A stretch of DNA of 64,000 bases, from positions 14,320-78,319 of the IMG/VR virus record IMGVR_UViG_3300023179_000074, one strand, 5' to 3'. The position numbers and the translations under genes were made by a program. Below the pieces are notes generated by a model. The model had not been told where the DNA came from and searched no databases. It saw only the letters and a program-made list of their open reading frames with translations. The DNA comes from a virus. This document shows, in pieces, positions 1 to 45,038 of this stretch; the stretch's first letter is position 1, and the number at the start of each line of letters is the position of its first letter.

Positions 1-642
1 AAAAAAATTTATCTTGTCCCTATAAACTAGTCCATCCATTCTTCCAGTATAATTATTATTGATAAATTTATATTTGTTAAGATCTAACCCCGGGGTGCCT
101 CTCCAAGGCCCAGACGATCGAATCGGTGCAATAGTTTCAAGTAAATCAAAAATTTTAGCCCTATCATCATTATGTGAGCCCTGTACTATACTACAAAAAT
201 ATTTTTTGTCCGTTATTATTTTTTCAGGATCTTTAGGTTCAACCAACCAATTAAAGGGTGTATCAAATATTCTGCTTTCATCAAAAAGTGTCCAGCAATC
301 TAATACACATGTAGGGAATCTTAGATATCTAGGATGGTCTATTTCTTCTACCCCTAAAACATAATTTTTATCAGATTCATTTAAAATACCATAATAATCT
401 TTAAAAATTTCTCCGGATATAAAAATCTTTTTACAGTTTTTATACATTCCTATTTCTTTATAATTGTCTCTTAAAAAATCATCGTAATCATTAACATTTG
501 CGTGAAGATTGGTCCATAAAACTATATCCGGGGTTTTTCCATCAGGAATAACATGATATTTTTTATTTAAAACAAATCTAAAATAATTAATCCATGAATA
601 CATTTGAAAAAAGTTTGCTCTTGAAAGTCTAACTAATTTCAT
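1..642 (-). CDS. Glycosyltransferase family 10 (alpha-1,3-fucosyltransferase-like), 3' end runs off the window; not in the ORF track
   Basis: Manual translation from ATG 642: MKLVRLSRANFF...KKYFCSIVQGSHNDDRAKIFDLLETIAPIRSSGPW...RDKINF, resembling the GT10 C-terminal FCS...R..F..L...SG motif; TAAATA lies 6 nt upstream. Confidence 0.65.
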   Translation of the reverse strand, partial: MKLVRLSRANFFQMYSWINYFRFVLNKKYHVIPDGKTPDIVLWTNLHANVNDYDDFLRDNYKEIGMYKNCKKIFISGEIFKDYYGILNESDKNYVLGVEEIDHPRYLRFPTCVLDCWTLFDESRIFDTPFNWLVEPKDPEKIITDKKYFCSIVQGSHNDDRAKIFDLLETIAPIRSSGPWRGTPGLDLNKYKFINNNYTGRMDGLVYRDKINFF

Positions 643-681
643 AAAAAGTATTTACAAAAAAAAATAAATTAATCAATATTA

Positions 682-1314
682 TTAGGTAATCTGTCTAAAA
701 TACTCGTTAATCAACTCTCCATCACTTCTGAACGGTATTCCTTTACCAAATATATAAGAAGGTATTTCATTTTCCCAAAATATACATAGCTCTTTTCCTT
801 TATAGTTGTTTCTTATTTGTTCTGAATTTTTATTCGTTTCAATAAATGAATATTTTGGAAACAAAAATAAGTTATCTTCTTTTACATCAAAAATAGTCTT
901 GTGATGTGAGTTACCTAGAAAATTATTACCATTTAAATAATTAAATTCATCATATTTTGAAGGAATGGCAATAAATCCTCGTTTAGATATTTTTTGAAGA
1001 AGTTCAATTAAATCTAAAGGATTAAACACATCTTCAAGAGTATGTGAACATATAGTAAAATCAAAAATTCCATTATTTTTTACGTAATCAAAAATAGAGT
1101 TATACTGATTTTTATTTTCAATATCAATTTCAAATTGTAAAACGTCGGGTTTGTTAATTTTTATTGAATCTGCTATTATTTTACACTCCGGATAAGACCA
1201 GTAATAAGCTGCAGCACCTATATCGATAGATTTAAAATTGTTAGTTTCTATTATTTTTTTAACTCTATTTCTTATTCCATCTATATCATTATTATAAAAC
1301 CATTCAGTAATCAC
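682..1314 (-). CDS. Class I SAM-dependent methyltransferase-like protein
   Basis: SIDIGAA (motif I) and FDFTICSHTLED (motif typical of Methyltransf_11/23); GTG start 5 nt after TAAATA. Confidence 0.65.
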   Translation of the reverse strand: MITEWFYNNDIDGIRNRVKKIIETNNFKSIDIGAAAYYWSYPECKIIADSIKINKPDVLQFEIDIENKNQYNSIFDYVKNNGIFDFTICSHTLEDVFNPLDLIELLQKISKRGFIAIPSKYDEFNYLNGNNFLGNSHHKTIFDVKEDNLFLFPKYSFIETNKNSEQIRNNYKGKELCIFWENEIPSYIFGKGIPFRSDGELINEYFRQIT

Positions 1315-1325
1315 AGAATTATTTA

Positions 1326-2603
1326 TTAACTTACTCTATTACCAATAACACCAGTGATAGGTTCTGCCCATCCTTTAGAAAGACTGTGCGGCCATACTAT
1401 CCAGCTATGAGGCATCTTCTCACTATTAAATTCTCTCCAAACCTTACAATAACCATCCGGGTCTTTCATCATTCTATCAATTTCTTCTTTATCTGCATCT
1501 TTGCGATATATATCTTGGCCTTTTTCATCTTTAAAAGCAACACACCAGAAATTATAGTCTTTCTCAGGCACTTGATCATAACGAATATCTATGCAATGTT
1601 TAAAAATGCTTAGTAAAGAATCTTCAAACTCTTCTTCCGAAAGATTGTCATTAGGATTTGGTGCATATTTATTTTCTAAAGTGTGTCTTTGAATAGCCCT
1701 CTTCTTAAAGCAAAGACCGGAGTAGCGTTCATAATCTCTTAGGGTTCGCTCTTTACCGAAGTCAAATTTTCCAAAATCAATATCTTTCTTTTCATTGTCC
1801 ATTTCAAATAATTTTCTATTACGAAGATGTGATTTATTATTCATTTCACCCCATAGAGGAATATCATCCCAGTGTTTTGTACGGCCTTTACGAGTGTATT
1901 CATGCCACATAACAACTATATGAGGATGGAATAAATCGTACCCGTGTGTGTAAGATCTTACTGCTAAATTAATCTCTTCTCCATGAAAATAATAATACGG
2001 GTCATAGGGTACCTCTTTAATCCATTTACCAAGCGTAAAGATAAAATGGGCAGATACAAAGCGAGCGGGTACCGGGCAGCTTAATTCTTTATACTCATCA
2101 ATAGATGCGGGTAAAAAAAATACAGCGCCTTCGGGAATAAATCTATCAAAATTCATTTTCCATGGAACGTTAATTCTTGCTTGTGGATCATTATCCGGAT
2201 CAAAACTTGAAATGTAGGCTGTAAGAAGAGGTTTTTTGTGACCTTTTTTCTGTAACTGCTTAATCATATCAATACACTTAACATCCCAATTTTGTGCAAA
2301 ACGGTGATGACTGTCTAATTGAAGATGGTACTTTTCGTTTTTATAAAGAGATTGAATTTTATTTCTAGCCCAGCATGTGCCTTGACTTTCTTTATAAGGA
2401 ATATCTAGTACGCGAAAACGTTTATCTGTAGTAAATTCTTCTAAAGATTCCTTTTCATCTCTTTGCCAAGCAATTCCAAATCTTAAATTTTCAGGATATT
2501 TTGCATTCTTAATACAATCTCTTAAAGTAGGTAATAGCTGAGGATCCCTATAAGAAGCAATTGATATAAAAATAGTATTTTTTGAGTTAATCTCTTTGGT
2601 CAT
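1326..2603 (-). CDS. GT60-like polypeptide N-acetylhexosaminyltransferase (Gnt1/Skp1 GlcNAc-T family)
   Basis: IFISIASYRDP, GTCWAR, LQLDSHHRF (DxH) and YFHGEE motifs characteristic of the GT60 / Pfam GlcNAc family. Confidence 0.8.
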   Translation of the reverse strand: MTKEINSKNTIFISIASYRDPQLLPTLRDCIKNAKYPENLRFGIAWQRDEKESLEEFTTDKRFRVLDIPYKESQGTCWARNKIQSLYKNEKYHLQLDSHHRFAQNWDVKCIDMIKQLQKKGHKKPLLTAYISSFDPDNDPQARINVPWKMNFDRFIPEGAVFFLPASIDEYKELSCPVPARFVSAHFIFTLGKWIKEVPYDPYYYFHGEEINLAVRSYTHGYDLFHPHIVVMWHEYTRKGRTKHWDDIPLWGEMNNKSHLRNRKLFEMDNEKKDIDFGKFDFGKERTLRDYERYSGLCFKKRAIQRHTLENKYAPNPNDNLSEEEFEDSLLSIFKHCIDIRYDQVPEKDYNFWCVAFKDEKGQDIYRKDADKEEIDRMMKDPDGYCKVWREFNSEKMPHSWIVWPHSLSKGWAEPITGVIGNRVS

Positions 2604-2609
2604 TGTTAT

Positions 2610-2637
2610 ATTTTATAAGACTATTAAAAAAAATCAA
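2610..2637 (-). promoter_or_regulatory. Sigma70-type promoter of the GT60 gene
   Basis: TTGATT-N16-TAAAAT-N6-ATG. Confidence 0.7.
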
Positions 2638-5289
2638 TTATCTGCTTGTTAATCTTATTGCGTTTAGATATGCATTAGATCCAGTGCAAAGAGAGGCAAG
2701 AATAGTAAGCCTACCACTATCTCTTGGAACTAAGTTATTAATTCTAAACACATTGTAATTATTTGCACTTAGCGAAGGTATACCTGATCCGGGTCCGGAA
2801 GTTTGAACACCGTAAGAACTTGTACCAGAATTATAACTTACTACATATTCAGTTTCACTTAAAAGAGCCGCAGAAGCTGATCCAAAAATACTTAGATCAT
2901 ATATTTTATTTGTATTTAGGTTGTAGAATTCTAATTCAAAATACGAATTTCCATAAATGTAATCTTCAGTTGCCGATTCTATGGCTAAGTTTCCTAAGTA
3001 AGCAGGGCTAGGGAATAATAGCCCTGGGTTAGTCGGGGCCCCGTCAGCACCTGTATAGTTACTAGCGCTTAAACCAAAGCCAGTTGATGTATTAGTTGTA
3101 TCAACAAGATTATTTACATCATTTACTAGTTCAGTTATATTGTTCCAATACTTCGAATTTGAATCAATCGTAGTTTGATCAGTGCTTAATCCTAAATCTA
3201 CTAAAATTTCAATAGGTACTCTGGTTTGCGTTACTGTAGGTGTTGGTGTTTGCGTCGGTGTTTCGGAAATTGTAGGTGTTACAGTCACAGTTGTAGATGG
3301 TGTTAGCGTTATGCTAGGGGTAATTGTAATTGTGGGTGTCGGTGTCATGGATGTAGTAGGAGTAATAGAAGGTGTTTGGGTTACCGTAGGTGTAAGTGTT
3401 TCTGTTGGTGTTACAGATATTGTAGGTGTGGGGGAGAAAGTCGGGGTTATAGATGGTGTTGGCGAATTAGATGTTGTTATTGTTGGTGTCACGGTTGGGG
3501 TTACAGAAGGTGTAGGGGTAACAGGAGCAAAGTTATAAATCGCTCCGTCAGCGAATACATTAAAATAAACTGTACCAGTATCCGTGGGTGAGAAACCAAA
3601 AGTAGTTCCATCTCTTGTATAGTCGTAAACAACATACATATAAATAACATTTTGATATTTTAACACCATTGTGGATTCAGATGTAACGGTGGAAGGACCT
3701 GCGTTAAAATATAAAGTTGATGTGTTATCTGGAGCGCTAATAAAGATTTCCTGGCCTTCTTGTGTTTTATTACCCGGGCCGGATAACTTATATAAGAAAG
3801 GAGTAATAGTTATTGTAGGTGTTACTGTTATCGTTGGTGTTATGGATGGTGTAATAGATATCGTTGGTGTTATGGAAGGTGTAATCGATATCGTTGGTGT
3901 TATGGAAGGTGTTATAGTTACTGTTGGTGTTTGAGAGACAGTAGGAGTAACTGTTAGAGTTACAGTCGGGGTAACTGTAGGTGTTTCTGTAACAGTAACT
4001 GTAGGAGTTATTGTTGGAGTAATAGAAGTAGTGGGCGTTATAGTGGGTGTAATGCTAGAAGTGGGTGTAACCGTTGGAGTTAATGTAGGTGTAGAAGAGA
4101 TGGTAATTGAAGGTGTTATAGAAATTGTCGGTGTCGGTGTTGGCGAAATAGGTATTATAGGCGTTTCGGTAATAGTAGGTGTTATAGAAATTGTCGGTGT
4201 CGGTGTAAGTGAAGTAGTAGGTGTAATTGACGGAGTAATAGATATAGTAGGTGTTATCGTAGGTGTAATAGAAATTGTTGGAGTAATAGAAGTTGTTGGA
4301 GTAATAGTAGGCGTTATTGAAGGGGTTATCGTTGGCGTTGTTGTTGTAGTAGGTGTAATAGAAATAGTAGGCGTAATCGAGGGGGTGATAGATATGGAAG
4401 GTGTTATTGTAGGGGTTACCGTTGGCGTTGTTGTTGTGGTAGGTGTAACTGCAGATGTATTCGTAACAGTTGGGGTAGCAGTTGCAGTTTTTGTGATAGT
4501 AGGTGTTTGGGTTCTAGTAGGTGTAATAGAAATTGTCGGTGTTATGGTAGGTGTAATAGTTACAGTGCATGTTGGTGTAAGGGTAACGGTTGGTGTAATG
4601 GTAGGAGTGGGAGTTAAAATAAAAGAATTTACATTTAAATTTTTAACGTAAAGATTAGTAGGGTATGGGCCGTTTGCAAAACCTAAACAGGGAAATACAG
4701 TAGGTGGTAATCTATAGGGTAATTTAAAATTTACATAATTTGTAAAGCTAGATCCATCATTATGATCTATAATAATACGATCGCCAATATCAGTTATACG
4801 AACTCTAAATACTGTATAATCACTACTAGCAATATTTGTATAAAGAGTTAATGGTTTTTTAAACGATGTAGATGTTAAGTTTTCTGATCTATAGAGTAAG
4901 TCATAGTTTCTATCTTCACTACTACGAATAGATATTGTATTAGGCAGTGGGGTGGAAAATCCGTTTAATTGCAAAATATCAGAACCAAAATTACCGGTTA
5001 TGTCAAAGCCTATACCCAATGCACCTTTTTTAATTCCATTAAAAAAAGTTAAAGCGGATGAGGAAAGAGCTGTTAAGCTAGTATAGGCTAACCCCGGGCC
5101 CGGCGAACCACCCGATAAATAATCTATACTAGCGTCTACAAAAAATAAGCAGAATCCTTCTGAGCCGCTTAGTTGTGTGCCGATACATTTATATTCGAAA
5201 GAAATAATACAATCACGCGTAGTGTCAAGCGTATCGAGCCTGTATAAAACAGATGTATCGTTATCATGATTTAAATTATAAAAAGCCAT
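2638..5289 (-). CDS. Putative virion fibre/adhesin: N-terminal L-type lectin-like domain, two long Pro/Thr/Ser mucin-like tracts, C-terminal beta-sandwich domain
   Basis: GSEGFCLFF...GLAY...LGIGFD..GNF legume-lectin-like motifs and more than 350 aa of TP repeats; start refined to MAFYNL (ATG 5289), just after the upstream stop at 5291. Confidence 0.65.
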   Translation of the reverse strand: MAFYNLNHDNDTSVLYRLDTLDTTRDCIISFEYKCIGTQLSGSEGFCLFFVDASIDYLSGGSPGPGLAYTSLTALSSSALTFFNGIKKGALGIGFDITGNFGSDILQLNGFSTPLPNTISIRSSEDRNYDLLYRSENLTSTSFKKPLTLYTNIASSDYTVFRVRITDIGDRIIIDHNDGSSFTNYVNFKLPYRLPPTVFPCLGFANGPYPTNLYVKNLNVNSFILTPTPTITPTVTLTPTCTVTITPTITPTISITPTRTQTPTITKTATATPTVTNTSAVTPTTTTTPTVTPTITPSISITPSITPTISITPTTTTTPTITPSITPTITPTTSITPTISITPTITPTISITPSITPTTSLTPTPTISITPTITETPIIPISPTPTPTISITPSITISSTPTLTPTVTPTSSITPTITPTTSITPTITPTVTVTETPTVTPTVTLTVTPTVSQTPTVTITPSITPTISITPSITPTISITPSITPTITVTPTITITPFLYKLSGPGNKTQEGQEIFISAPDNTSTLYFNAGPSTVTSESTMVLKYQNVIYMYVVYDYTRDGTTFGFSPTDTGTVYFNVFADGAIYNFAPVTPTPSVTPTVTPTITTSNSPTPSITPTFSPTPTISVTPTETLTPTVTQTPSITPTTSMTPTPTITITPSITLTPSTTVTVTPTISETPTQTPTPTVTQTRVPIEILVDLGLSTDQTTIDSNSKYWNNITELVNDVNNLVDTTNTSTGFGLSASNYTGADGAPTNPGLLFPSPAYLGNLAIESATEDYIYGNSYFELEFYNLNTNKIYDLSIFGSASAALLSETEYVVSYNSGTSSYGVQTSGPGSGIPSLSANNYNVFRINNLVPRDSGRLTILASLCTGSNAYLNAIRLTSR
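3190..4615 (-). repeat. Low-complexity (T/S/I/V)-T-P coding repeats, including three near-identical 30-bp units at 3831-3920 (ISITPSITPT)
   Basis: Directly visible: tcgttggtgttatgga(t/a)ggtgt(a/t)at repeated three times. Confidence 0.9.
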
Positions 5290-5290
5290 A

Positions 5291-8200
5291 TTAAATTCCA
5301 AATACAAAGGCTCCGTTAGAAACATAACCTGGATTATTGCCAAGTATGTTGTATGTTAAAAAGCTTGATGATAGTGTATTGCTAAAATTAACAGAATCGA
5401 CATCTGGAGCTAATTTATACATAGTATTAGTTATATTAATTATTTTACCGTTTACATATTTAAATATAGTTTTAAAAATATAGAATACGTTAGAGATATC
5501 TCTACCTAGATAACTTATACAGTATTGACCGGTGTCGTCATTATAATTAAATAATGGCTTGTCTATCTCAACAATATTTACATTAATACTATTTCCAGAT
5601 AACGAAAACAATCTTAAATGTTCAAAAGTAAGTGTGTTGCTAGATTCTAAAGGATATATTTTATTATAAGCTAGTGTATCAATATTAACTGTATAAATTT
5701 CTGGATAAATTATTTTATAATTTGTAGCGCTTAATTCGTGAAATAGTATTGTTTTGCAGAAGAATAAAACATTATCTGTCTCGTCAAACCAAACTGTAGA
5801 AATTTTTTCTAATTTTTTATAATCACCCCTTAAAAAGAAACAATCATTTCTACTTCTGTTTATTATAATATTATTTTCATAATCAAATATTATTTTATCA
5901 AAAACTAAGTAGTTTTCTGTATCAAATTGTATTGTATCGTAATAAAGATCAAAATTAATTAATTTATTTTTTAATTCATTATTAATACCGTCATTATATT
6001 TTGTATACATACCACTTAATGCCGCAGAAGCAGGTATAATTATAGAAGAATTAGAATTTCTATAATACAACTCTCCATAATCTAAATATTTTACTTGATA
6101 TAAACTTCTTTTTCTATCTAAACCAGATAAACCTTCAATGACTTTTGTATCTCTTTGAGGAATGTGATAATCTAAGTATAGACTTTTCTCATCGTAAGAA
6201 ATGTTAAATTCAAGATCATTACCACAAGGTTCAGCACTGTTAACAAGAAAATAAGTACCATCATAAATAGTAATAGCGGAAGCCGGTGGTGTAAATAGAA
6301 AGTCACCTGAATATACAAAATTAGCTCTAAACGAAGGGCCGTTTTTATTTAACCCTGCATCAATTAATATATTATAATAAAGCGACCCGTCTTCAGGGTT
6401 GTACCCGGGGTCATCAGAAGAATAGTCTGTTAAAGGTACGCCTTCTACTGTAAAAGTAACACCATCATAAACATTGCATAAGAATGTTAATTGTACGTAT
6501 GATGGGCAAAAAGATTCGGGGTAGAATCTATATGATACAACCGGATATGTTATGCTTGTTAAAGCAAACGTGGGTGTTCCATTATTATAAGCGATACCTG
6601 AAAGGGGAGAAGGTGAGATAAAAGATGATCCTTGTGTATAATAACCGGAGCCGGGTGGTATATTATCTGTAGTTTTTAGAATAATACCGGAATAGCCTTT
6701 ATCTGCATCTATAGTAGTGTAATCAAAATTTGCCCCTGAAATACTGTCATTTAAAACATGACCATCTAATAATAAGCAAAAGAAAATATCTAAATTTTGA
6801 TCACCACGGATATTAGATGCTTGCTTTAATGGATGTACATCTTTATAAAGACTAAATTCGTTACCATATATATCACTTTTTAGCTGAACAAGTGTTTTGT
6901 TAAGGGAATATAGTTTTTCTAATCTATTATCAATAGGAAATAGGTTAGAAGGTATTTTAGGGTAAATGTCTTCATTGGACCAAATATTTTTTAAGTCGCT
7001 TTTAAAAAAGTCTTGAGGGTCTGTGTAACGAGATAATCCCTGGTTTGAATAATTTAATGATTGCTCTCTGGTTTGATATGGTCTAAATGTTTGAAAGTAA
7101 GAGCTGGTTTCTGAATCACCAAATAAAAATTGATTAGAAAAATCTATTTTATTAAAATAATTATTTTCTAAAAATGTAAGAGGTGAGGTAAATTCTTCTT
7201 CTGTCAAGCCGGAGACATTTTCAAATTTTTGAGGATCGGGAAAAATGTAGATTGTATTTGCGCTTAAAGAATCACGATTTATTGTAACGGTTAGGCCGAA
7301 GTTAGAAAAATTAGAAAAACCTATTTTATCGGGTTTAAAAAATAGCCCTATATCTTTTGAAGTGCGTAAAAATTCTTCGCTCGGTACAGCAGCAACACTA
7401 GGAAATCTTTTATTAATATAATTTGCAAATTCATTGTTTGCAGTAAAGAGAAGCCCAGATAAAAATTGATTAGATGTATTTCCGGTAGAAAGATAATAAA
7501 AATCTGTACCTATATATTTTTGAATAAGTTCTTTATTTAAATTTAAATTTAAATTATTACTATTATTATTATTGACCGTATTAATAAAATCACTATCTTT
7601 TAAAAACGATAAATTACTGCTGTTTACGGTTGGTGAAATAGAAAAATTATTATTGCCTAGCTCAATTAAATAAAAAGGATAGCTTGTAATTGCATTAACA
7701 ATTGAATAATTAAAATTTAAAAATAAATTAGGATCAATATTGTATTGATTTAAATTAAAATAATCTTTTAATAAACCGGATTGAGTATCATAACTAGAAA
7801 AATTAAAATTAAAACTTGTATCTAAATAATTTGTATAGGTGTCGTATAAATCCTCAACATCAATAACCATATTGTTGCGAATAGAGGAAAGAGAAAGATT
7901 TAAGTTTTTTATAAAATCTGTTAAATCTTCGGTTTCTAAGGATTTTGATATTTCATTATAAATTAATTTTTGTATACCGAAATTTGATCCTTTTAAGTTA
8001 TACCTGGTAACACCTGTTTTTACATCATCGCGCAAAGTACTATAGTATAAACAAATTTCTTTTATTTTTTCTGCAAAAAACGGCACAGCAACTGCCAGAT
8101 CTCTATTATTATTAAAATCTATATTCTTTAAAAATCTTTTCTCATCACTCGTAGTATAGTTAAGTACGATTTCATTAATTAATTCCGTGTATAATGACCG

Positions 8201-8431
8201 GGTAGTAAGTTCCTGTACTTCGCGTTGAATATTTTTAACCTCATACCAGTTATTAAGATAAGACTGATATCTAGAAAGAAAATCTTCTGAACTAGTGAAC
8301 AAACTATTATTATACTTTAACCATTGTTGAAAGGTAAGTGGTTCAATGAAATCTATAGGATTTGTAGGGGGGACTAAAGAAGTTATTGATACTGAAAGTC
8401 TTTCGTCAATAAATCTACTAGAGCGTAACAT
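5291..8431 (-). CDS. Large virion structural protein (baseplate/tail-associated)
   Basis: 1046 aa, Asn/Ser/aromatic-rich, downstream of baseplate wedge genes, TAAATA 5 nt before ATG. Confidence 0.5.
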   Translation of the reverse strand: MLRSSRFIDERLSVSITSLVPPTNPIDFIEPLTFQQWLKYNNSLFTSSEDFLSRYQSYLNNWYEVKNIQREVQELTTRSLYTELINEIVLNYTTSDEKRFLKNIDFNNNRDLAVAVPFFAEKIKEICLYYSTLRDDVKTGVTRYNLKGSNFGIQKLIYNEISKSLETEDLTDFIKNLNLSLSSIRNNMVIDVEDLYDTYTNYLDTSFNFNFSSYDTQSGLLKDYFNLNQYNIDPNLFLNFNYSIVNAITSYPFYLIELGNNNFSISPTVNSSNLSFLKDSDFINTVNNNNSNNLNLNLNKELIQKYIGTDFYYLSTGNTSNQFLSGLLFTANNEFANYINKRFPSVAAVPSEEFLRTSKDIGLFFKPDKIGFSNFSNFGLTVTINRDSLSANTIYIFPDPQKFENVSGLTEEEFTSPLTFLENNYFNKIDFSNQFLFGDSETSSYFQTFRPYQTREQSLNYSNQGLSRYTDPQDFFKSDLKNIWSNEDIYPKIPSNLFPIDNRLEKLYSLNKTLVQLKSDIYGNEFSLYKDVHPLKQASNIRGDQNLDIFFCLLLDGHVLNDSISGANFDYTTIDADKGYSGIILKTTDNIPPGSGYYTQGSSFISPSPLSGIAYNNGTPTFALTSITYPVVSYRFYPESFCPSYVQLTFLCNVYDGVTFTVEGVPLTDYSSDDPGYNPEDGSLYYNILIDAGLNKNGPSFRANFVYSGDFLFTPPASAITIYDGTYFLVNSAEPCGNDLEFNISYDEKSLYLDYHIPQRDTKVIEGLSGLDRKRSLYQVKYLDYGELYYRNSNSSIIIPASAALSGMYTKYNDGINNELKNKLINFDLYYDTIQFDTENYLVFDKIIFDYENNIIINRSRNDCFFLRGDYKKLEKISTVWFDETDNVLFFCKTILFHELSATNYKIIYPEIYTVNIDTLAYNKIYPLESSNTLTFEHLRLFSLSGNSINVNIVEIDKPLFNYNDDTGQYCISYLGRDISNVFYIFKTIFKYVNGKIINITNTMYKLAPDVDSVNFSNTLSSSFLTYNILGNNPGYVSNGAFVFGI

Positions 8432-8439
8432 TTAAATAT

Positions 8440-10905
8440 TTAATTGTTATATACGATGTCGCTAGCACTTAATATCAATCTAAGACCTTTAGTCAACTCA
8501 TAATTTATTAAACTATCCATTATTCCATTTGTTTTGGTCCATTCTTTAAATGAACTGTTTGTAAAGTTAATGGTGGTAAACGGTGATTCCCAGTCAATTA
8601 TATTATTAAAGTAATTATCGTTATAAACATCAACAAATTCATAAAATTTATAAAAATCACTAATTCTTGAGCCAGACAACTTTCCTGGTATAACCAAACT
8701 CCAACCCCAACTGCTATTAAACGATGAAAGAGGTATAACATCACCGTAGCTATACCCTTGTATAGTTATGCTATTAACTAACGAGTATAGCCCTGAAAAT
8801 GTCTCATACGCGACTACTGGGTAACCGGCTGTAATATATGAAGTTTTAGTAGAGAGTTCAGAACCTCTATTCTTTGCATAATTATCATTAAATTGTGTAC
8901 CTTTTTTACTAAAATCTAAATTAAATCTATTTCTATTTCCCCATAAATTAGAATGTTTTATTGATAAAATATTTACTAATCTCGTTAGTTGAGGTGGAAA
9001 GGGATAGTTGTATTGTTCGAACTGTATAGACAGTTCTTTACAAAAAGAAATTAATGCGTCAAGATTACATTTATCAATATCTGATTTATTACTCACAAAG
9101 TTTGCTATTTTTTCATATACTGTTTTACCTAATTCGTAGGGCTGTGCGGTAATACCTCCTACTATTGTACCTATAAAACTATTAAAAAGATTAAATTTAT
9201 CTTCTAAAACTTCACTGAAAATTAACGACTTATAAAACCCAGCTGCATCAAAATTTTCATTTACTTTACTAATGCTATATTGACCTGAGAGAGGTAATAT
9301 ATTAAAGAAATTGCTTTCACCGGTTATAGTTCTTACTAGTGTTGTAGGTATCATTCGCTTATTAATCCATCTTGTGCCTAACCAGTCACCGTAAGCTTGA
9401 AAGCTACGCTCAGCGAATGTGCTTAAAATATTTGTAGGTGATTCACCGGGTAGAATTAAATCAACACTATTTAAATAATTTACACTACTTACTTTAGGTG
9501 CTAAGGTATCTATAAAATATAATTTTTGATCAAAGTTATTTAAAATCCATAAGAAATCATTTGTATCACTTGCTAGTCCGCCTATACTTCCTATATAACT
9601 TGTAGAGTTAGCTGAACCTGCAATATAATTTGATGTACTACCATTTACACCATCAATTCTTGTTATAGTATCTCTATCTTGCGCAACCCATAAATTTTGA
9701 AACATATCTGTTGTTGCATTATGAATAAATTTAAATCCTGATATAGGATATCCAGAAGATAAATCCCCACGAGTATTAAATTTATAAACATAGTCATTTC
9801 TACCTGATAGGGTATATCCAGAAGCGGCTAAATTATATGCTGTTACCCATACGTTTTTATTTCTATCAATAATAATTTCTGCGGGTGAATGAAGAGGTAT
9901 AAATGGTACAACACAAAGCAACGAACCGTATGTACTATATTTTGCAATAAAACCGCAAACCGGGTGTGTATATGAAACCCATATATCATTATTAAAATCT
10001 GAATCTATACTTACGGGGTATACAAGATTTTCTCCAGCAAACCCGCTCAAAAACGGTAAGTGGTAATCTCCACTAAGAAAATAACATATATTTGTTACAT
10101 CTGGATATGCATTTGAAAGCATGTAGCCGGATTTACCATCTATTTTAATACTTGAAACAGCATCAGCTAAGCAAAACCATAAATTATTTTCTCCATCTAA
10201 AGTAATAGATGCAGGGGCAGCGCTACTTAAAATTGGATTAAGTAGGTTTACATATTCTTTAATACCAGTGTTAGGGTTTATATATGGGTAAGCAGAAAGA
10301 GTGAAAGATGAGAGAAGTACACCCTCAGCGGTAAATTTAATTAATGAATCTCTCGAACCATCAGCAAACCACGCTTGATAATCTTCTCCTATACCTGCGC
10401 CGGAGGGAGCAACTTGAATTGCATATACATTTCTATTATTATAGTTATAAACAAAATTTTTAGCGGCAGATATACTTAGAGTCACCCCACCTAAGCAGGA
10501 GCCATAAATTTGTTCTCTAAATAATCTTACTAAAACATCATACTGAGGTACTGCTGCCCATCCGATGAAGGTATCTTTAGGATAATTAATCGGGTCCTTA
10601 ACTGTCATTCTAGCAGTTAATTGCAAGTTGTAAGTAGGTTCATTAACTATAAAATAACCTTTAAAAAACGCACCGATACTTCTAGGTATTTCATCGTTAA
10701 AATCATCAAAAAATTGTACCCCGGTGACCGGATAAAAATTACTACCTTCTTTTCTTTGTAGACCAAAGTTTACATTAAAAGATGTTAGTCCAGATAAAGA
10801 AGAATCCGTAACAGATGAATAGATTGGAGGGTAGGTTTTTGTTGTAAAATTATCCGCATCTTTCATTTTAATAAGAAAAGGAATTTCAGTATTTTGCCAA
10901 CTCAA
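8440..10905 (-). CDS. C-terminal part of a baseplate-associated protein with NHL/beta-propeller repeats; probably joined to 10902-11900 by a frameshift
   Basis: Repeats such as ITLDGENNLW, SIDSDFNNDIW, IIDRNKNVW; weak TTG start with no promoter; frame stays open upstream to 10947. Confidence 0.55.
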   Translation of the reverse strand: MSWQNTEIPFLIKMKDADNFTTKTYPPIYSSVTDSSLSGLTSFNVNFGLQRKEGSNFYPVTGVQFFDDFNDEIPRSIGAFFKGYFIVNEPTYNLQLTARMTVKDPINYPKDTFIGWAAVPQYDVLVRLFREQIYGSCLGGVTLSISAAKNFVYNYNNRNVYAIQVAPSGAGIGEDYQAWFADGSRDSLIKFTAEGVLLSSFTLSAYPYINPNTGIKEYVNLLNPILSSAAPASITLDGENNLWFCLADAVSSIKIDGKSGYMLSNAYPDVTNICYFLSGDYHLPFLSGFAGENLVYPVSIDSDFNNDIWVSYTHPVCGFIAKYSTYGSLLCVVPFIPLHSPAEIIIDRNKNVWVTAYNLAASGYTLSGRNDYVYKFNTRGDLSSGYPISGFKFIHNATTDMFQNLWVAQDRDTITRIDGVNGSTSNYIAGSANSTSYIGSIGGLASDTNDFLWILNNFDQKLYFIDTLAPKVSSVNYLNSVDLILPGESPTNILSTFAERSFQAYGDWLGTRWINKRMIPTTLVRTITGESNFFNILPLSGQYSISKVNENFDAAGFYKSLIFSEVLEDKFNLFNSFIGTIVGGITAQPYELGKTVYEKIANFVSNKSDIDKCNLDALISFCKELSIQFEQYNYPFPPQLTRLVNILSIKHSNLWGNRNRFNLDFSKKGTQFNDNYAKNRGSELSTKTSYITAGYPVVAYETFSGLYSLVNSITIQGYSYGDVIPLSSFNSSWGWSLVIPGKLSGSRISDFYKFYEFVDVYNDNYFNNIIDWESPFTTINFTNSSFKEWTKTNGIMDSLINYELTKGLRLILSASDIVYNN

Positions 10906-11900
10906 TTCGGGAAAATAAAATTTTGTAGTGGATAGTACTCCTTCACATCAATACCTGTAGTGGTGATATTAAGTTTTTCAGCGGGGTTGTGTCTAACTTT
11001 AATAATAGGCAGTACAGCTGGCTTAATATTATTATACCCATAAGGTGGGTAAGATATATCTCTGTATGAATCGCTGTTTATAGTATATCTATCGGGAAAT
11101 TTTGAATTATCTAAAGTTGCAAATATAAAAATAGGTGGTTCTCGTGAAGTATAGTTTTTAGTTACATCGTCAACATAAAAAAATTCGTATGAAGCGGTTG
11201 TACCTACAAAAAAACTACCAATATCATTTTTATTACAAATTCTAAAAGACTTATTATCTATTTTAGCAAAAATAGGTTCACCGGCTTTAGTTATCCTATC
11301 AACTGATTGATACTCAAACGAGTCGCCAACAGGAGTTTTTATATAAAACCGACTTAATGCTCTTAAATGAGACCATTTATCATCATAAAAATTATCTATA
11401 TTTTGAAATTGCCCTAGAGCTCCGGATGCATAGAGATGGACAGTGTATCCCGTACTACTCAATGCATTGTAAGACTGCCAGCTTGTTTGTCTTAATAATT
11501 CTATAGGCTCAATAATCTTACTAGCTGGAACATCGTAAATAAAACGTCTAAAATCTTTAAAAACTAATTGATCTCTTATAAAATCATAAACCTTTATGGT
11601 AGGTTGATATGAACTATCGTAAGCATTACCGAATTTATCATATACTGTGAGTCTTACTTTGTAGTCACCGGGCCACTTATAATAATGAGTTGCAGTTAGA
11701 AGACTTGAAAAAGTACCATCACCAAAATCCCATCTTAACAATTTATTAGAAATAGAGTCATCAGAAGAGAGAACTGGAGAGGTAAGAAAATCGGGAACAA
11801 AAGTTAGTGAAGTTTGTGGAAGTGTGAAGGCAGAAAGTACAGCTCTACCTGTAAAGTCATTAGCTCTAAAATATACATAAGTATAATTTACAGAAGCCAT
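10902..11900 (-). CDS. PKD-domain structural protein, N-terminal part of the split gene
   Basis: WDFGDG...HYYKWPGDYKVRLTV PKD signature; AAGGAG 5 nt upstream of the ATG. Confidence 0.7.
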   Translation of the reverse strand: MASVNYTYVYFRANDFTGRAVLSAFTLPQTSLTFVPDFLTSPVLSSDDSISNKLLRWDFGDGTFSSLLTATHYYKWPGDYKVRLTVYDKFGNAYDSSYQPTIKVYDFIRDQLVFKDFRRFIYDVPASKIIEPIELLRQTSWQSYNALSSTGYTVHLYASGALGQFQNIDNFYDDKWSHLRALSRFYIKTPVGDSFEYQSVDRITKAGEPIFAKIDNKSFRICNKNDIGSFFVGTTASYEFFYVDDVTKNYTSREPPIFIFATLDNSKFPDRYTINSDSYRDISYPPYGYNNIKPAVLPIIKVRHNPAEKLNITTTGIDVKEYYPLQNFIFPN

Positions 11901-13759
11901 TAATACTCCTTAGTTAGTGATGTTATAGAAGGCGTAATTATTCTTATCTTATTTGCAAAATCAAGAGAATTATTAAGAAATGGGTATTTAAAGTAAGGCA
12001 GTTGATAATCTTGTGTTGTTACAGTTATATCTTTTTCGGGATATACGGGATTATAAACTACTAAACAAACTCCTGGGATTGTAATTGTTGTATCACCTTC
12101 AATTCTTTTAGTATTAATATCAATAATTCCGGATTCAGGAATTGCTAAAATTTGATTGGTAATTTCGGTAATATTTATTACAGATCCTAAATTGTCTCTT
12201 AGAGTAGAAAAATAATTTCTAAAAATTTTCGTAATTTGATCTTTTAATGCTTCTGGGTTTCTTTTAGAAGTAATGTCACGTGAGATTTCTAGAAAACTGT
12301 TGTCTGAAATACTGGGTGATAAAGGCTCTCCAGGAAAATTAGTACCTATATCTACAGCTACATAGACGGGATCATTAACTATAATTTCAGAAGTGGTTAC
12401 TTTTACTTTTTGCAAGTCATTTAATATAAGTTGTTTTTGCGCGGAGTTTAAATAGCTACCTCTGGTTGTGAGTGATGTGAGTTTTTCGAGCTTAGGTACA
12501 GCATACAAATATATATTATTAAAATTACAAGAGTCAGCAAATTTTACTTGATTAAAAAGAACTCTACTTTCGAGATTAGGCCTAGAAACACCCAAATCAA
12601 AGTAATATTTTAAATGACCTGAAATATAATCCCAATTATTTACCGCTTTAACAGACGAAATAATATTACTGTAGTTTTTACTTACATAATTTATAAAATC
12701 TTCAGCGGTTATAAGCCTATATTGACTTCTAAATGTATTGGATGCATTGTTTTTTATGTTCGATACGGATTCTCTAGGTATATAAGTTGTACTCGCATCT
12801 ATATTACTAAACTCTATATTATTAACTTGCTGTGTAGTAATAATATTAAGATTTTCTGGTGTTGTATCGGTTCGAATGGTATTAAATCTTGTTGTGTTAT
12901 AGAAAAACATTTTATTATTGTTTAGTAACCCGGGACCTACTTCACCGATAACACCATTGGTCTTTAAATAATATATTGCAACTTCATCACCGGGATTTAA
13001 CTGCTTTCCAGTTACGTTATTACCAAATCTTATTTCATATCTCTCATTTTCGTTTAATCTAATTTCATAAACTTCAGAGTTACTTCTTTCTAAAAATAAA
13101 GACTGGACAGGCGACCATTTAGACCACTTAGGACTATCAACCGTATTATCTTTTACGTAAACATCTATATTAAAATGATCAATAGGTACGTTTTGGCCTG
13201 TAGCGTCAACCACAGTAAGGGTTAATGTTTCGAAAGGCTCACCTACTCCAACATAAATAGGATATTCTGAATATATACCTTGATATAATAGATTATTATC
13301 TTGAAGATCGGTTAAAATTTCAGTATCACTAGAATTTTTTATAAACGTAACGTCTTTATTAAAGCTATAATTTGTACCGTTTATAGAAAAATATGAATAT
13401 CTCGGAATCGTATATGTGTTAGGTGGTAGAGAAGCATTAGCTTGTGCTAAAAAAGAAAGTATAGCAGTTTGATTGCCTACGGGATTATAATTTAAAATTT
13501 TTACTATTTTGTTTACGTTTTCAAATAATTCAGCAGTAGTAAAGGTGCTTTCAGAACCAGTTCTATTAAGATAAAATAAGAGAACATGATATGCATAAGC
13601 AATAATATCTATTAAGGAAGAAAGATTACTACCTTCAAAGTTTTGATCAGTAAAAAAATTATTAGAGTTTAATCGAGTAATTATTAGACTCTTTAAGCTT
13701 TGTGCATCAAACGCAACATAGCTATCTTTCTCTAAAGTAAAATCGTTAAATTCAGCCAT
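11900..13759 (-). CDS. Baseplate wedge subunit, T4 gp6-like
   Basis: FTDQNFEGSNLSSLIDIIAY, YEIRFGNNVTGK and QYRLITAEDF motifs; adjacent to gp25. Confidence 0.85.
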   Translation of the reverse strand: MAEFNDFTLEKDSYVAFDAQSLKSLIITRLNSNNFFTDQNFEGSNLSSLIDIIAYAYHVLLFYLNRTGSESTFTTAELFENVNKIVKILNYNPVGNQTAILSFLAQANASLPPNTYTIPRYSYFSINGTNYSFNKDVTFIKNSSDTEILTDLQDNNLLYQGIYSEYPIYVGVGEPFETLTLTVVDATGQNVPIDHFNIDVYVKDNTVDSPKWSKWSPVQSLFLERSNSEVYEIRLNENERYEIRFGNNVTGKQLNPGDEVAIYYLKTNGVIGEVGPGLLNNNKMFFYNTTRFNTIRTDTTPENLNIITTQQVNNIEFSNIDASTTYIPRESVSNIKNNASNTFRSQYRLITAEDFINYVSKNYSNIISSVKAVNNWDYISGHLKYYFDLGVSRPNLESRVLFNQVKFADSCNFNNIYLYAVPKLEKLTSLTTRGSYLNSAQKQLILNDLQKVKVTTSEIIVNDPVYVAVDIGTNFPGEPLSPSISDNSFLEISRDITSKRNPEALKDQITKIFRNYFSTLRDNLGSVINITEITNQILAIPESGIIDINTKRIEGDTTITIPGVCLVVYNPVYPEKDITVTTQDYQLPYFKYPFLNNSLDFANKIRIITPSITSLTKEY

Positions 13760-37253: not shown

Positions 37254-37511
37254 CTACTTATTTTTATTGTACTGTTTAATGCAAACTTTGTATACATAAG
37301 AAGGTATTTTTTGTACAATCTCTATAATTTTATTATCTAGACCAAAGTCAAATTTTTCTTGAGGCACATCTCTTACTTTCATATCAGGTAAAGACAAAAA
37401 AGAATAATTTTCTTTATTTTTTTCAATAAAAACAAAAAGCTCTCCTAAAAATTTACCACCGGTGATCGCGTATAAATATTTTTTCTTAGGATGTTTAAGA
37501 TTAAAAATCAT
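37254..37511 (-). CDS. Hypothetical protein
   Basis: ATGA overlap with the upstream gene. Confidence 0.55.
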   Translation of the reverse strand: MIFNLKHPKKKYLYAITGGKFLGELFVFIEKNKENYSFLSLPDMKVRDVPQEKFDFGLDNKIIEIVQKIPSYVYKVCIKQYNKNK

Positions 37512-38383
37512 AACGCTTCAATACATTTTAAAAGCGACTCTTCAACAGGTGGAAGCAATAATCCTAATGAATCAATTTTATTTGTAGAGAGTATACAATT
37601 GCTTCTTTTAGCTTTTAGCTTAAGACTATCTATTTCAACAAACTCCCAGTTAGGGTTAATATGATTGTTTTTAGATAAGTTTTCTACAATAAATTTTGCA
37701 TTTGATATACCTGGATTGACAACATTGTATATACCGGGCAATGTTTTATAAAAATCATTTTTTATAAATTGATCAACAAACAAAATAAAATCTTCTAAAC
37801 ATGTATAGCTATTATTAAAATTTACTAATTTAGGATATTTTAAAATTTTATTTAAAATATTTTTAGATGTATTAAATGAACAAAAGGGCATTCTCACTCT
37901 TAATATAGAACTCTTAGACGTGGTAAGAAGTAATTCAGACAAGTGTTTAGTTTTAGAATAAAAACTACTTTGTTCATTAAAAAACCCAAAATTAGGAATA
38001 TCTTCTTCTGTATACTCTTTTTCATAGCCCGAATATATACAGCCGCTACTAACATTTATAAGCCATGCGTTGTTTTGATTACAAAATGTATTGAGAATAA
38101 CGGGTAGCTTTGTATTGTAAAGAAAGCAATTTTCCTTGTCCTCTTCGCAAGCATCGACATTAGGAATCCCTGTATACCCTGAGCAATTTATAATAATGAC
38201 ATCATCTAATAAATTACCATTAAAATCAGTAAAATAGCTTCTGATAAATTTCTTTAATTGTATAGGTGAAAAATAATCTAGTTCTTTTCTCGAAACAATA
38301 ACAGACTTATAATTACTTTGAGCTAGCTTTTTATGAAGAGGTATACCTATAAATCCTTTACCCAGTAATAAGATATTTTTCAC
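37508..38383 (-). CDS. NDP-4-keto-6-deoxyglucose 3,5-epimerase/4-reductase (RmlD / NRS-ER-like)
   Basis: GKGFIG Rossmann motif, GYTGIPNVDACE, SSGCIY, YSKTK, LRVRMP. Confidence 0.85.
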   Translation of the reverse strand: MKNILLLGKGFIGIPLHKKLAQSNYKSVIVSRKELDYFSPIQLKKFIRSYFTDFNGNLLDDVIIINCSGYTGIPNVDACEEDKENCFLYNTKLPVILNTFCNQNNAWLINVSSGCIYSGYEKEYTEEDIPNFGFFNEQSSFYSKTKHLSELLLTTSKSSILRVRMPFCSFNTSKNILNKILKYPKLVNFNNSYTCLEDFILFVDQFIKNDFYKTLPGIYNVVNPGISNAKFIVENLSKNNHINPNWEFVEIDSLKLKAKRSNCILSTNKIDSLGLLLPPVEESLLKCIEAL

Positions 38384-43647: not shown

Positions 43648-44313
43648 CTATAAGTTAGAGTAATTTCTAATAAATTTTTCTTGGCTTTGTAAAAAAGTCT
43701 TGTCATTTAAATTTAAGAGACCTGGTGATTTATGAATTACATGTATAGGATACACTCCAAGCTTTAACTTTTTAAAATTAGCATCAATAGAGCTAGCAAT
43801 ATCATAATGATGAAAAGTGTAGTCCTCGTTGAACTCCCAACCGCTATTAACAATAGCTTTTGTTGAAACGCTTAAAAATAATCCGTCTAAAATAGTTACA
43901 CGGCTAGGCGTAAGCCCAAAATTTGTAACAAAATATTGTTCGGTGTTTGCATAGTGTGCAACAAACCCCCTTAAGTTAGGACCGAACCCACCGCACATTA
44001 AATGCCATAATGCTGGTTCTTTAACAACAGGGTTAATACCACCTGCAAGACCAACAATATCATATAACCTATGGGCGGTAACTAACTTTTCACAAATATT
44101 ATAATCATCTACAAATACATCATCATGTAAAAAAATAATATAATCAAAATTATTAGAATTTTTATTTAAAAATTCATTGTATTTTTTACTAAGACCCTCT
44201 TTATTATTGCAAGAATAAAAAATTTTACCCGGGCTTATCTTACTTAAAGATTTAAATGCAAGAGTATTGTCTGGCTTATTTTCTTTAGTACAAAAGTAAA
44301 AAGCAAATTTCAT
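43648..44313 (-). CDS. GT2-like (GT-A fold) glycosyltransferase
   Basis: IIFLHDDV, ILDGLFL, FHHYDI, HKSPG. Confidence 0.7.
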   Translation of the reverse strand: MKFAFYFCTKENKPDNTLAFKSLSKISPGKIFYSCNNKEGLSKKYNEFLNKNSNNFDYIIFLHDDVFVDDYNICEKLVTAHRLYDIVGLAGGINPVVKEPALWHLMCGGFGPNLRGFVAHYANTEQYFVTNFGLTPSRVTILDGLFLSVSTKAIVNSGWEFNEDYTFHHYDIASSIDANFKKLKLGVYPIHVIHKSPGLLNLNDKTFLQSQEKFIRNYSNL

Positions 44314-44990
44314 TAAAAAAACGGTGAGTTGGTTTTAAACTTACCTACAGATGTAATGCCTTCAGGCGTTAAGTAATACAGAAGTCCTTCCTCTAAAGGA
44401 ACAAAATCCTGTTCTTTTAGTGAAGAAAATTCATTGTTTAGGAAATCTGCATAAATTGTACTTCCACTTCTTGCAATATATACATGTGCATTTTTTTGAT
44501 TATAAATCCATAGCCCAAATGTACCTTCAAGTAAAGATAGCGCTTTACATATACCGAGTATTTCATCACCGTGTTCTTTAACGGAATTAAAAATTAGTGG
44601 TGGTATCACAGATGAATCTACAGTATTAAATGACTTTTTATCTGTTATTGTTTTCTTTAAAATTTTATCATTTGTAAGTACCCCGTTGTGTGCTATAATC
44701 CAATTTTTATATTGAAATGGATGTGTTGTGTTAGGGGAAAACTCTCTTTTTGATGACGTTGGGGCTTGTGTATGGCCTAAAAAATAATTAAAATCTGTAA
44801 TACTTTTTTTACTTTTTCCATATTCTATAATAAGTTTTTTGGAGAGCTTTACTACATTTGGGCTTTTTAAAATAGCATGTACTTTGGTGTTAATTAGTAA
44901 TCCCCCGTAAGAAAACGTACCTCTTTTCTTATTACTATCATAAAGCTTTACGTATCTTGTAAAGTCTTTAGCGCCAAATATTCCGCAAAT
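44313..44990 (-). CDS. Class II (Ntn) glutamine amidotransferase, 225 aa, with non-canonical ATT start
   Basis: Open frame (M)CGIFGA...KRGTFSYG...GHTQAPT...HPF...AHNGVL...VDSSVIP...LEGTFG; no in-frame ATG/GTG/TTG between the Cys codon and the upstream stop; AAGGAGG 8 nt before ATT. Confidence 0.85.
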   Translation of the reverse strand: MCGIFGAKDFTRYVKLYDSNKKRGTFSYGGLLINTKVHAILKSPNVVKLSKKLIIEYGKSKKSITDFNYFLGHTQAPTSSKREFSPNTTHPFQYKNWIIAHNGVLTNDKILKKTITDKKSFNTVDSSVIPPLIFNSVKEHGDEILGICKALSLLEGTFGLWIYNQKNAHVYIARSGSTIYADFLNNEFSSLKEQDFVPLEEGLLYYLTPEGITSVGKFKTNSPFF

Positions 44991-44998
44991 ATTATAAA

Positions 44999-45037
44999 CC
45001 TCCTTAATTATTATATTACAAAGAATAAATAATTCAA
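44999..45037 (-). promoter_or_regulatory. Sigma70-type promoter (TTGAAT-N16-TATAAT) plus perfect Shine-Dalgarno AAGGAGG
   Basis: -35 at 45032-45037, -10 at 45010-45015, SD at 44999-45005. Confidence 0.75.
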
Positions 45038-45038
45038 G

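Follow-up and report, generated by a model that had tools for sequence, protein, structure and literature searches.

A 64,000-nucleotide (nt) window of viral DNA, comprising bases 14320-78319 of the 78,319-bp IMG/VR viral contig IMGVR_UViG_3300023179_000074 (CheckV completeness 36%), encodes a glycosyltransferase (GT) of family GT60 immediately after TP883, an 883-amino-acid (aa) fibre-like protein carrying long threonine-proline (Thr-Pro) tracts. The best reading of this locus, and one that we hold with moderate confidence, is that the phage encodes a cytoplasmic protein O-glycosylation system for its own fibre-like proteins. Gene content, enzyme families, the fold and invariant motif of the GT60 protein, the position of the enzyme island, and the statistical and syntenic coupling of GT60 to Thr-Pro tracts were observed directly; from these we infer the tract as acceptor, the identity of the sugar, the order of the steps, late timing, a virion location and a benefit to the phage. 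Genes beyond the window edge were taken from the first 15 kb of the same contig, referred to here as L003.

The GT60 gene (1326..2603, minus strand) encodes a soluble protein of 425 aa, which matched PF11397 with an E value of 1.7e-72 (245 bits against a cut-off of 21, covering profile positions 1-44 and 95-350 of 352) and phrog_24687 with an E value of 4e-163. Its N-terminus forms the first strand of the GT-A fold, and neither a signal peptide nor a membrane anchor is present. In an alignment of 84 homologues, those of jumbo phages included, D97-S98-H99, H234 and an N-terminal YRD are invariant, as are many of the aromatic residues within the last 90 positions. An AlphaFold model of the enzyme was obtained with a mean predicted local distance difference test score (pLDDT) of 87.9 and a predicted template-modelling score of 0.82; when this model was compared with the Protein Data Bank (PDB) by Foldseek, nearly all of the matches listed were polypeptide GalNAc-transferases (ppGalNAc-Ts), the galactofuranosyltransferase GlfT2 appearing at rank 50. 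VIA-align likewise returned ppGalNAc-Ts as the top 29 PDB entries (Z 19-22, root-mean-square deviation 3.3-4.0 Å over 270-280 residues), with generic GT-A enzymes coming next at a Z of no more than 17.2; the alignments cover residues 6 to about 330 of the model and the catalytic domains of the ppGalNAc-Ts. Sequence searches of solved structures, whether with single sequences or with a 41-sequence profile, yielded nothing for the GT60 protein or for the 210-aa protein encoded next to it, and the enzyme is therefore placed among solved structures by fold comparison only. A preliminary description, made from the sequence alone, had placed a GT60-like transferase directly after the repeat protein, and both the family assignment and the ppGalNAc-T-like fold bear this out. 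Outside every ppGalNAc-T match lies a conserved, tryptophan-rich and beta-rich C-terminal domain (residues about 336-425; window 1326-1595), which by analogy with the lectin domain of ppGalNAc-Ts may bind substrate.

TP883 (2638..5289, minus strand) was delimited as an open reading frame (ORF) whose homologues hold the same position in related phages; judged from the sequence, its start is most likely the ATG at 5289, 1 nt past the stop of the upstream 1046-aa gene. An L-type (legume) lectin-fold domain, recognized by AlphaFold and Foldseek (residues 1-224; 4618..5289), precedes Thr-Pro tract 1, the proposed O-glycan acceptor (residues 225-497; 3799..4617; 273 aa with 116 Thr, 27 Ser and 53 Pro). 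A 90-aa globular module (residues 498-587; 3529..3798) separates this from tract 2 (residues 588-689; 3223..3528; 102 aa with 42 Thr, 11 Ser and 22 Pro), and a C-terminal domain of 194 aa (residues 690-883; 2641..3222) completes the protein, all of these features lying on the minus strand. The tracts thus measure 375 aa (273 + 102), in agreement with the more than 350 aa of Thr/Ser/Pro repeats described previously.

Both tracts obey a strict grammar, in which 98% of alternate positions are Thr or Ser and the intervening positions are Ile, Val, Leu or Pro; the residue before a Pro is Thr in over 90% of instances and the residue after it is Thr or Ser, while Ile, Val and Leu account for about 25% of the non-Thr/Ser positions. 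The DNA encoding them is imperfectly repetitive (62-96% matches), indicating that the tract composition is kept at the protein level and does not stem from recent expansion. Across the Thr-Pro tracts of the window and L003, the X-Thr alternation runs for up to 273 residues with no slip of register, a grammar that resembles a two-faced beta-strand more than a random mucin coil.

AlphaFold, supplied with a 31-sequence alignment, modelled residues 1-225 of TP883 at a pLDDT of about 90, and gave the tracts a pLDDT below 50 and no secondary structure; the C-terminal domain also fell below 50, and the model of the 90-aa module was of low confidence. The N-terminal domain matched the lectins VIP36 and ERGIC-53 and legume (peanut) lectins (Foldseek E 2e-8 to 1e-6, probability 1.0, target template-modelling score 0.54-0.64), and D96, G94/G99 and N117 are invariant in its alignment. 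Of the lectin-like head proposed earlier, the lectin fold is thus upheld, whereas the distal placement is not: among 28 homologues the lectin domain is the conserved N-terminal part, and it is the C-termini that vary, carrying LRR, LamG or MBG domains. A constant N-terminus joined to a variable C-terminus fits the pattern of a fibre, and the C-terminal 194 aa of TP883 are possibly its distal, receptor-binding part. The 90-aa module occurs as five paralogous copies within 20 kb of the contig (profile hmmsearch, E 1e-20 to 1e-37), namely after tract 1 of TP883, at the C-termini of three other tract proteins, and as a stand-alone 104-aa protein (L003:258-572); the family was found in this phage and the two relatives nearest to it, and nowhere else. 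TP883 and the other tract proteins matched no structural family of Pfam or PHROG, phrog_15511 being a family of unknown function.

The two genes that follow GT60 on the minus strand are the methyltransferase and the GT10 fucosyltransferase-like gene named in the preliminary description. The first (682..1314) encodes a class I S-adenosylmethionine-dependent methyltransferase-like protein of 210 aa that matched nothing in Pfam, NCBIfam or the PDB sequences; ESM Atlas places it near the Methyltransf_11/23 clusters (features 0.95-0.98, template-modelling score 0.65-0.78), and an IDIGAA motif is visible. The second (1..642) is cut by the window edge after its first 214 aa, a fragment with no Pfam match by itself; the full protein of 323 aa (L003:13990-14961) matched PF00852 with an E value of 8.9e-10 (39 bits against a cut-off of 23.9).

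Five more enzyme genes lie beyond the edge, encoding an FkbM methyltransferase (PF05050), a Methyltransf_24/CmcI-like methyltransferase, a PLOD-type glycosyltransferase domain (PF25342), a 236-aa GT-A protein resembling GT8/Nucleotid_trans (Atlas template-modelling score 0.65-0.67, DADWD motif) and, as the last enzyme of the island, a 555-aa protein in which an HtrL_YibB domain is fused to a GT2-like one. The enzymes are succeeded by fibre-like genes for proteins of 519 aa (219-aa tract), 1115 aa, 536 aa, 178 aa (95-aa tract), 672 aa (427-aa tract) and 104 aa, the three with tracts being located at L003:577-2595, 2595-3131 and 8103-9662. Eight enzyme genes are therefore packed tightly on one strand inside the fibre module, downstream of the gp6 baseplate genes and between Thr-Pro proteins, and the four tract proteins around them hold about 1,100 tract residues together. 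The repeat protein had been thought to end the structural operon; this was an effect of the window edge. The three enzyme genes first seen after the repeat protein thus belong to a larger system of eight enzyme genes and four tract proteins.

GT60 relatives are encoded in 397 IMG/VR stretches, and the best 80 of these, 65-90% identical, were compared as loci. In at least 15 of the closest 20, GT60 is directly preceded by the end of a Thr-Pro ORF, and another tract ORF lies behind the HtrL/GT2 gene, with the same synteny as in this phage. The HtrL/GT2 gene accompanies GT60 in 73 of the 80 loci; the other island genes occur sporadically among the 80 (210-aa methyltransferase in 2, GT10 in 11, FkbM in 2, Methyltransf_24-like in 23, PLOD-type GT in 6, GT8-like in 11). 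The conserved core is accordingly GT60 together with the HtrL/GT2 fusion, and the methyltransferase and GT10 are variable accessories.

The association between GT60 and Thr-Pro tracts was measured in both directions with a DNA pattern for TPTxTPT, the reversed pattern serving as control. The pattern occurred in 30 of 42 GT60-bearing records, including every one of the 11 with a completeness of 90% or more, with tens of hits per record; since the reversed pattern gave about none, the tracts are far beyond chance. Conversely, among 48 arbitrary IMG/VR records selected by a longer tract pattern, 17 encoded PF11397, three of them with far more divergent members of the family (GT60s with E 1e-12 to 1e-37). 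A random control, made up of 29 records no shorter than 25 kb that were drawn with a nonsense pattern of comparable design, contained no PF11397 and a single record with the tract pattern, in one hit. Fisher tests gave p = 3.6e-9 (30/42 against 1/29) and p = 1.2e-4 (17/48 against 0/29), values which overstate independence because the sampled records are kin. The co-occurrence of GT60 with Pro-Thr-repeat proteins that the preliminary description had suggested looking for is thus strongly positive both ways, and a contrast between sister lineages adds to it. Two sister records, G120 (90 kb) and G121 (79 kb), possess the gp25-gp6-PKD-821-1046 module and are 41-60% identical to this phage in it; neither has a tract protein after that module, a GT60 gene, or a tract-pattern hit anywhere in the record, whereas G124, a similar fragment that does encode GT60, has 55 hits. 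The single near-complete GT60 record without TPT tracts encodes three proteins of 780-828 aa that are rich in Thr, Ser and Gly, together with an extensin-like (PPS)n protein (G020:C1:119705-122119) that is cut by the contig end.

Coupling between genes could also arise if the targets of the island were instead capsid, sheath, decoration or other proteins of the phage, as in mycobacteriophages and chloroviruses, and the Thr-Pro tracts were plain unglycosylated spacers common in the same large phages. Documented virion glycosylation in phages concerns capsid and tail-tube proteins, in mycobacteriophages, and Thr-Pro tracts were found without GT60 in six of nine near-complete pattern-selected genomes, from which it follows that tracts do not need GT60; both facts suit this alternative. 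It accounts less readily for the tract ORF that directly adjoins GT60 in the closest relatives, in a further locus (L078) and on a contig of a metagenome-assembled genome (MAG) with a divergent GT60, for the joint absence of GT60 and tracts from the sister records, or for the fact that the nearest structural relatives of GT60 act on Thr/Pro-rich mucin tracts. We regard it as unlikely, though worth weighing seriously. The MAG contig (G127:C98:9396-11265, Bacteroidota) carries a divergent 330-aa PF11397 gene (E 3e-26) directly beside a Thr-Pro tract, and is probably of phage origin. Close GT60 relatives were present on seven MAG contigs and otherwise essentially on viral contigs. Apart from one MAG, a sample of 400 Bacteroidota genomes gave marginal generic GT-A matches only, and no bacterial reservoir of GT60 was found in the genomes searched.

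The pairing of GT60 with HtrL/GT2 extends to cultured phages. In the Xanthomonas phages XacN1 and Xoo-sp13 and the Stenotrophomonas phage RAS14, with genomes of 309-385 kb, homologues of GT60 (43-48% identity) and HtrL/GT2 (39-43%) lie a few genes apart in all three. Tract-pattern hits numbered 51 in XacN1, 51 in Xoo-sp13 and 22 in RAS14, and the control pattern had none. The GT60 homologue of XacN1 is ORF334 and the HtrL/GT2 gene is ORF330, and the tracts of this phage reside in large hypothetical proteins, namely ORF325 (3313 aa, adjoining baseplate wedge genes), ORF350 (by a structural protein), ORF369-372 (by a sheath completion gene) and ORF384. At least two bands of XacN1 virions were stained by a periodic acid-Schiff glycoprotein kit according to the XacN1 report (PMC5852040), which proposes the two glycosyltransferases of the phage as makers of the stained glycoproteins. 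The report calls the enzyme a 'glycosyltransferase family protein', draws no link to the tracts and, in its accessible text, does not assign the bands to proteins, so that the stain also agrees with glycosylation of other phage proteins. In these jumbo phages a 765-aa carbamoyltransferase gene directly follows GT60, between it and HtrL/GT2 (XacN1 ORF333, L323:16415-18712; equivalents in L324 and L325), a gene content that suggests carbamoylated glycans.

The families of the accessory enzymes raise a different possibility, that the island remodels a glycan of the host envelope (the core of lipopolysaccharide or lipooligosaccharide (LPS/LOS), O-antigen or capsule), providing superinfection exclusion or preventing progeny from re-adsorbing to debris. 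O-antigen loci often contain GT10 as well as methyltransferases of the FkbM and CmcI-like types, and the accessory genes differ between relatives as they do in serotype loci. HtrL_YibB moreover occurs in LPS/LOS core loci (TIGR02192 match; A. baumannii OC locus papers). Among the island genes, however, there is no initiating phosphoglycosyl (lipid-carrier) transferase, flippase, polymerase or ABC exporter, and remodelling of host glycans is less favoured because these lipid-carrier and export genes of a surface-polysaccharide pathway are absent. The lead enzyme comes from a family and fold directed at polypeptides, the island sits in the structural module, with late-type motifs, of a lytic T4-like phage, and the coupling to phage-encoded tracts persists across phages of very different hosts. 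On balance, an envelope target seems quite unlikely to us.

The regularity of the tracts invites a third explanation, in which (X-Thr)n forms an unglycosylated, oligomeric beta-rod with Ile, Val, Leu and Pro inside and Thr outside, and the association with GT60 reflects common descent within a wide set of phages from fresh water and soil. The alternation maintained over 273 + 102 residues, with its complement of Ile, Val and Leu, is the grammar of a two-faced strand, and the relatedness of the records means that the counts are not independent. Regular sheets are nevertheless disfavoured by a Pro at every 4-6 residues, and AlphaFold gave the tracts no structure, which is a weak argument given the shallow alignment. 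Common descent is also a strained account of an association that spans GT60s of 43-90% identity, divergent GT60s and phages of 108-385 kb, and that shows in the sister-lineage contrast too. A Thr-lined rod could, furthermore, itself be glycosylated; the strict X-Thr alternation could reflect either an acceptor register of the enzyme or such a rod, and both would be compatible with glycosylation. We consider an unglycosylated rod with associated GT60 by ancestry distinctly improbable.

Modification of phage DNA, or of a nucleotide-linked metabolite, in the manner of the T4 glucosyltransferases has to be considered for a T4-like phage, since such phages glucosylate DNA, and the GT2 region of the 555-aa protein has a weak match (E 3.9e-5) to a PHROG named for a T4-type hydroxymethylcytosine glucosyltransferase. 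A separate set of genes at 43648-46660, in the replication region, could be read the same way: it comprises a GT-A protein (PF13712) beside a QueC-like/amidotransferase gene (phrog_1550) and is a candidate for DNA-base modification unrelated to the island. The candidate genes for such chemistry thus lie elsewhere in the window, whereas the island is in the structural module and GT60 belongs to a protein-directed family and fold, and we find a DNA or metabolite target for the island very improbable indeed.

Glycosylation of the fibre-like proteins would, in outline, proceed as follows. Late in infection, the soluble GT60 would use host UDP-HexNAc, probably UDP-GlcNAc as in the GT60s of protists, and set the first sugar on Thr/Ser of the alternating (X-Thr)n tracts in four or more proteins encoded by the baseplate/fibre module, among them TP883 and the three outside the window. 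The conserved partner, the two-domain HtrL_YibB and GT2 protein, would extend the chain, and the variable accessories (GT10, the PLOD-type GT, the GT8-like GT-A protein, FkbM, the CmcI/Methyltransf_24-like and the class I methyltransferases) would finish the glycan. The product would be an extended, glycan-sheathed stalk that spaces and protects the lectin domain, the 90-aa modules and the C-terminal domain. A hydroxyproline linkage is rated less likely than Thr/Ser, because a prolyl hydroxylase (PF13640) is absent from this contig, itself 36% complete, and present in only one of five complete GT60-bearing genomes. In that carrier (G011, the record of L026), a prolyl-hydroxylase-type 2-oxoglutarate-Fe(II) oxygenase (G011:C1:122733-122951; PF13640 E 8.8e-9) lies about 9 kb from GT60 and could indicate a hydroxyproline variant of the system.

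Several points weigh against the glycosylated-fibre reading. The stained bands of XacN1 lack assignments in the accessible part of PMC5852040, related records inflate the Fisher statistics, and tracts occur where GT60 does not. HtrL, GT10 and FkbM are families that LPS/LOS loci typically contain, and the alternation of X with Thr could signify a folded oligomeric beta-rod in place of a mucin-like coil. The virion location of the tract proteins is deduced from the position of their genes behind gp6 and gp25, and the GT60 gene is preceded by the variant TATAAAATA and not by an exact TAAATA, the late-type motif of its neighbours. The mucin-stalk interpretation of the preliminary description consequently survives in part: the enzyme families, the GT60 fold, the co-occurrence and the Schiff-stained bands of XacN1 favour it, whereas the trio of enzymes taken as the core and the head position assigned to the lectin do not stand.

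The genomic setting is that of a T4-like myovirus of low GC content (about 30%) for which DNA-level comparison found no close cultured phage; window genes include a gp6-like baseplate wedge, tail sheath, large terminase, UvsX, gp32 and a family B polymerase. Every gene in 1-31741 is on the minus strand, with the order gp6, PKD-domain protein, 821-aa protein, 1046-aa protein and TP883. The gp6-like wedge subunit (11900..13759, minus strand; phrog_219 E 2.1e-46; about 25% identity to cyanophage gp6 by tblastn) places the locus in the baseplate/fibre module. After it come, likewise on the minus strand, a 332-aa PKD-domain protein (10902..11900; PF18911 E 4.7e-11), an 821-aa structural-module protein that is syntenic in relatives (8440..10905), and the 1046-aa structural-module protein directly upstream of TP883 (5291..8431), a synteny anchor.

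The hexamer TAAATA, the core of the T4 late promoter, stands at -11 or -12 before many starts in 1-31741, where it leaves no room for a Shine-Dalgarno sequence. It was confirmed 11-12 nt 5' of the starts of six genes of the locus: gp6, the 1046-aa gene (-11), the 210-aa methyltransferase (-11), GT10 (-12) and two fibre genes. Late co-expression of the island is suggested by this promoter-like motif. A sigma-70-like site before GT60 (TTGATT-N16-TAAAAT, a 9/12 match) was rejected as no better than chance, such sites numbering 29 against 26.5 ± 5.2 in shuffled sequence. Plus-strand 'VGV' ORFs (3182-3538, 4031-4651 and others) were dismissed as antisense readings of the Thr-Pro repeats and not genes. 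The NDP-rhamnose epimerase/reductase previously noted at 37508-38383 (minus strand) proved to be an RmlD-type NDP-6-deoxyhexose reductase, scoring 58.5 bits with PF04321 (cut-off 27) and falling short of the cut-off of TIGR01214 (E 7e-15); by its family it is a possible supplier of sugar donor, and it sits 35 kb off in the replication region with nothing that ties it to the island.

More tentatively, and with somewhat less than even confidence, we propose a generalization: that GT60 and HtrL/GT2 may form the core of a widespread, phage-specific O-glycosylation system that turns the (X-Thr)n tracts of fibres into mucin-like, glycan-sheathed stalks, in at least 397 IMG/VR contigs and in phages of about 108 kb to 385 kb with unrelated hosts; the swappable accessories would then define a glycan 'serotype' of each lineage, and the lectin domain might dock the fibre on host or phage glycans. 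If this is true, mucin-type glycosylation would have a third home in bacteriophages, independent of those in animals and protists, and soluble enzymes with encoded acceptor tracts would constitute a new route to dense O-glycosylation in the bacterial cytoplasm, useful for glyco-engineering. It would also change how the long low-complexity 'linkers' of environmental phage fibres are read, and it has implications for the stability of phages, their resistance to proteases, adsorption and recognition by the immune system. Virion glycosylation has been shown for few phages, with other enzyme families. Viromes from lakes and soils commonly contain the system, which is also present in cultured phages and hence directly testable. 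Glycosylation of phage virions, GT60 enzymes and Pro-Thr linkers that carry glycans have each been described singly; no description of their combination in phages was found in the papers searched on phage O-glycosylation and on GT60 in phages.

The closest known enzymes by family are the GT60s of protists, which are UDP-GlcNAc:polypeptide alpha-GlcNAc-transferases: Dictyostelium Gnt2 acts on PTVT-type repeats, the OGNTs of Trypanosoma cruzi on mucins, and the cytoplasmic Gnt1 on a hydroxyproline of Skp1. Like the phage enzyme, they match PF11397 well above its cut-off and contain a DxH motif, the soluble cytoplasmic form is shared with Gnt1, and the protist repeats resemble the proposed acceptor grammar in that Thr is flanked by Pro and Val/Ile. 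In contrast to them, the phage enzyme is encoded by a virus, would act in the bacterial cytoplasm, has the extra conserved beta-rich domain at its C-terminus (about 336-425), is partnered with the HtrL/GT2 fusion, and mostly lacks an accompanying prolyl hydroxylase (present in 1/5 complete genomes). The GT27 ppGalNAc-Ts of animals and Toxoplasma, which start mucin-type O-glycosylation on Thr/Ser in Pro-rich tracts, provide the nearest solved structures and share the GT-A fold and the DxH metal site; the phage protein differs from them in belonging to the GT60 sequence family, with only 12-17% identity, no ricin-type lectin domain aligned and no membrane anchor. The term 'eukaryote-style', used in the preliminary description, is an analogy of fold and substrate grammar and does not point to a eukaryotic origin.

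Among viruses, the mycobacteriophages likewise encode GTs beside structural genes and modify phage structural proteins in the cytoplasm; their GTs are of other families, the acceptors are C-terminal extensions of capsid and tail-tube subunits, and the hosts are actinobacterial. XacN1, Xoo-sp13 and RAS14 come nearest, with the GT60 and HtrL/GT2 cluster, tract hits and a giant tract-bearing ORF by the baseplate wedge, and differ in their gammaproteobacterial hosts, the carbamoyltransferase and the lack of GT10. Virus-encoded self-glycosylation is also known for the capsid of chlorovirus PBCV-1 and the fibrils of mimivirus, where host-independent cytoplasmic machinery with methyltransferases decorates surface structures; these are eukaryotic viruses, whose GT families and acceptors are different and whose glycans are atypically N-linked or attached to fibril proteins. 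For the acceptor, the nearest counterpart is the Pro-Thr linker of bacterial and fungal cellulases, in which O-glycosylation guards against proteases and keeps the linker extended. Such linkers are similarly Pro/Thr-rich, extended and located between globular domains, but they belong to secreted host proteins, are modified by membrane PMT-type or Golgi enzymes, measure tens of residues and do not follow the strict X-Thr alternation of the phage tracts.

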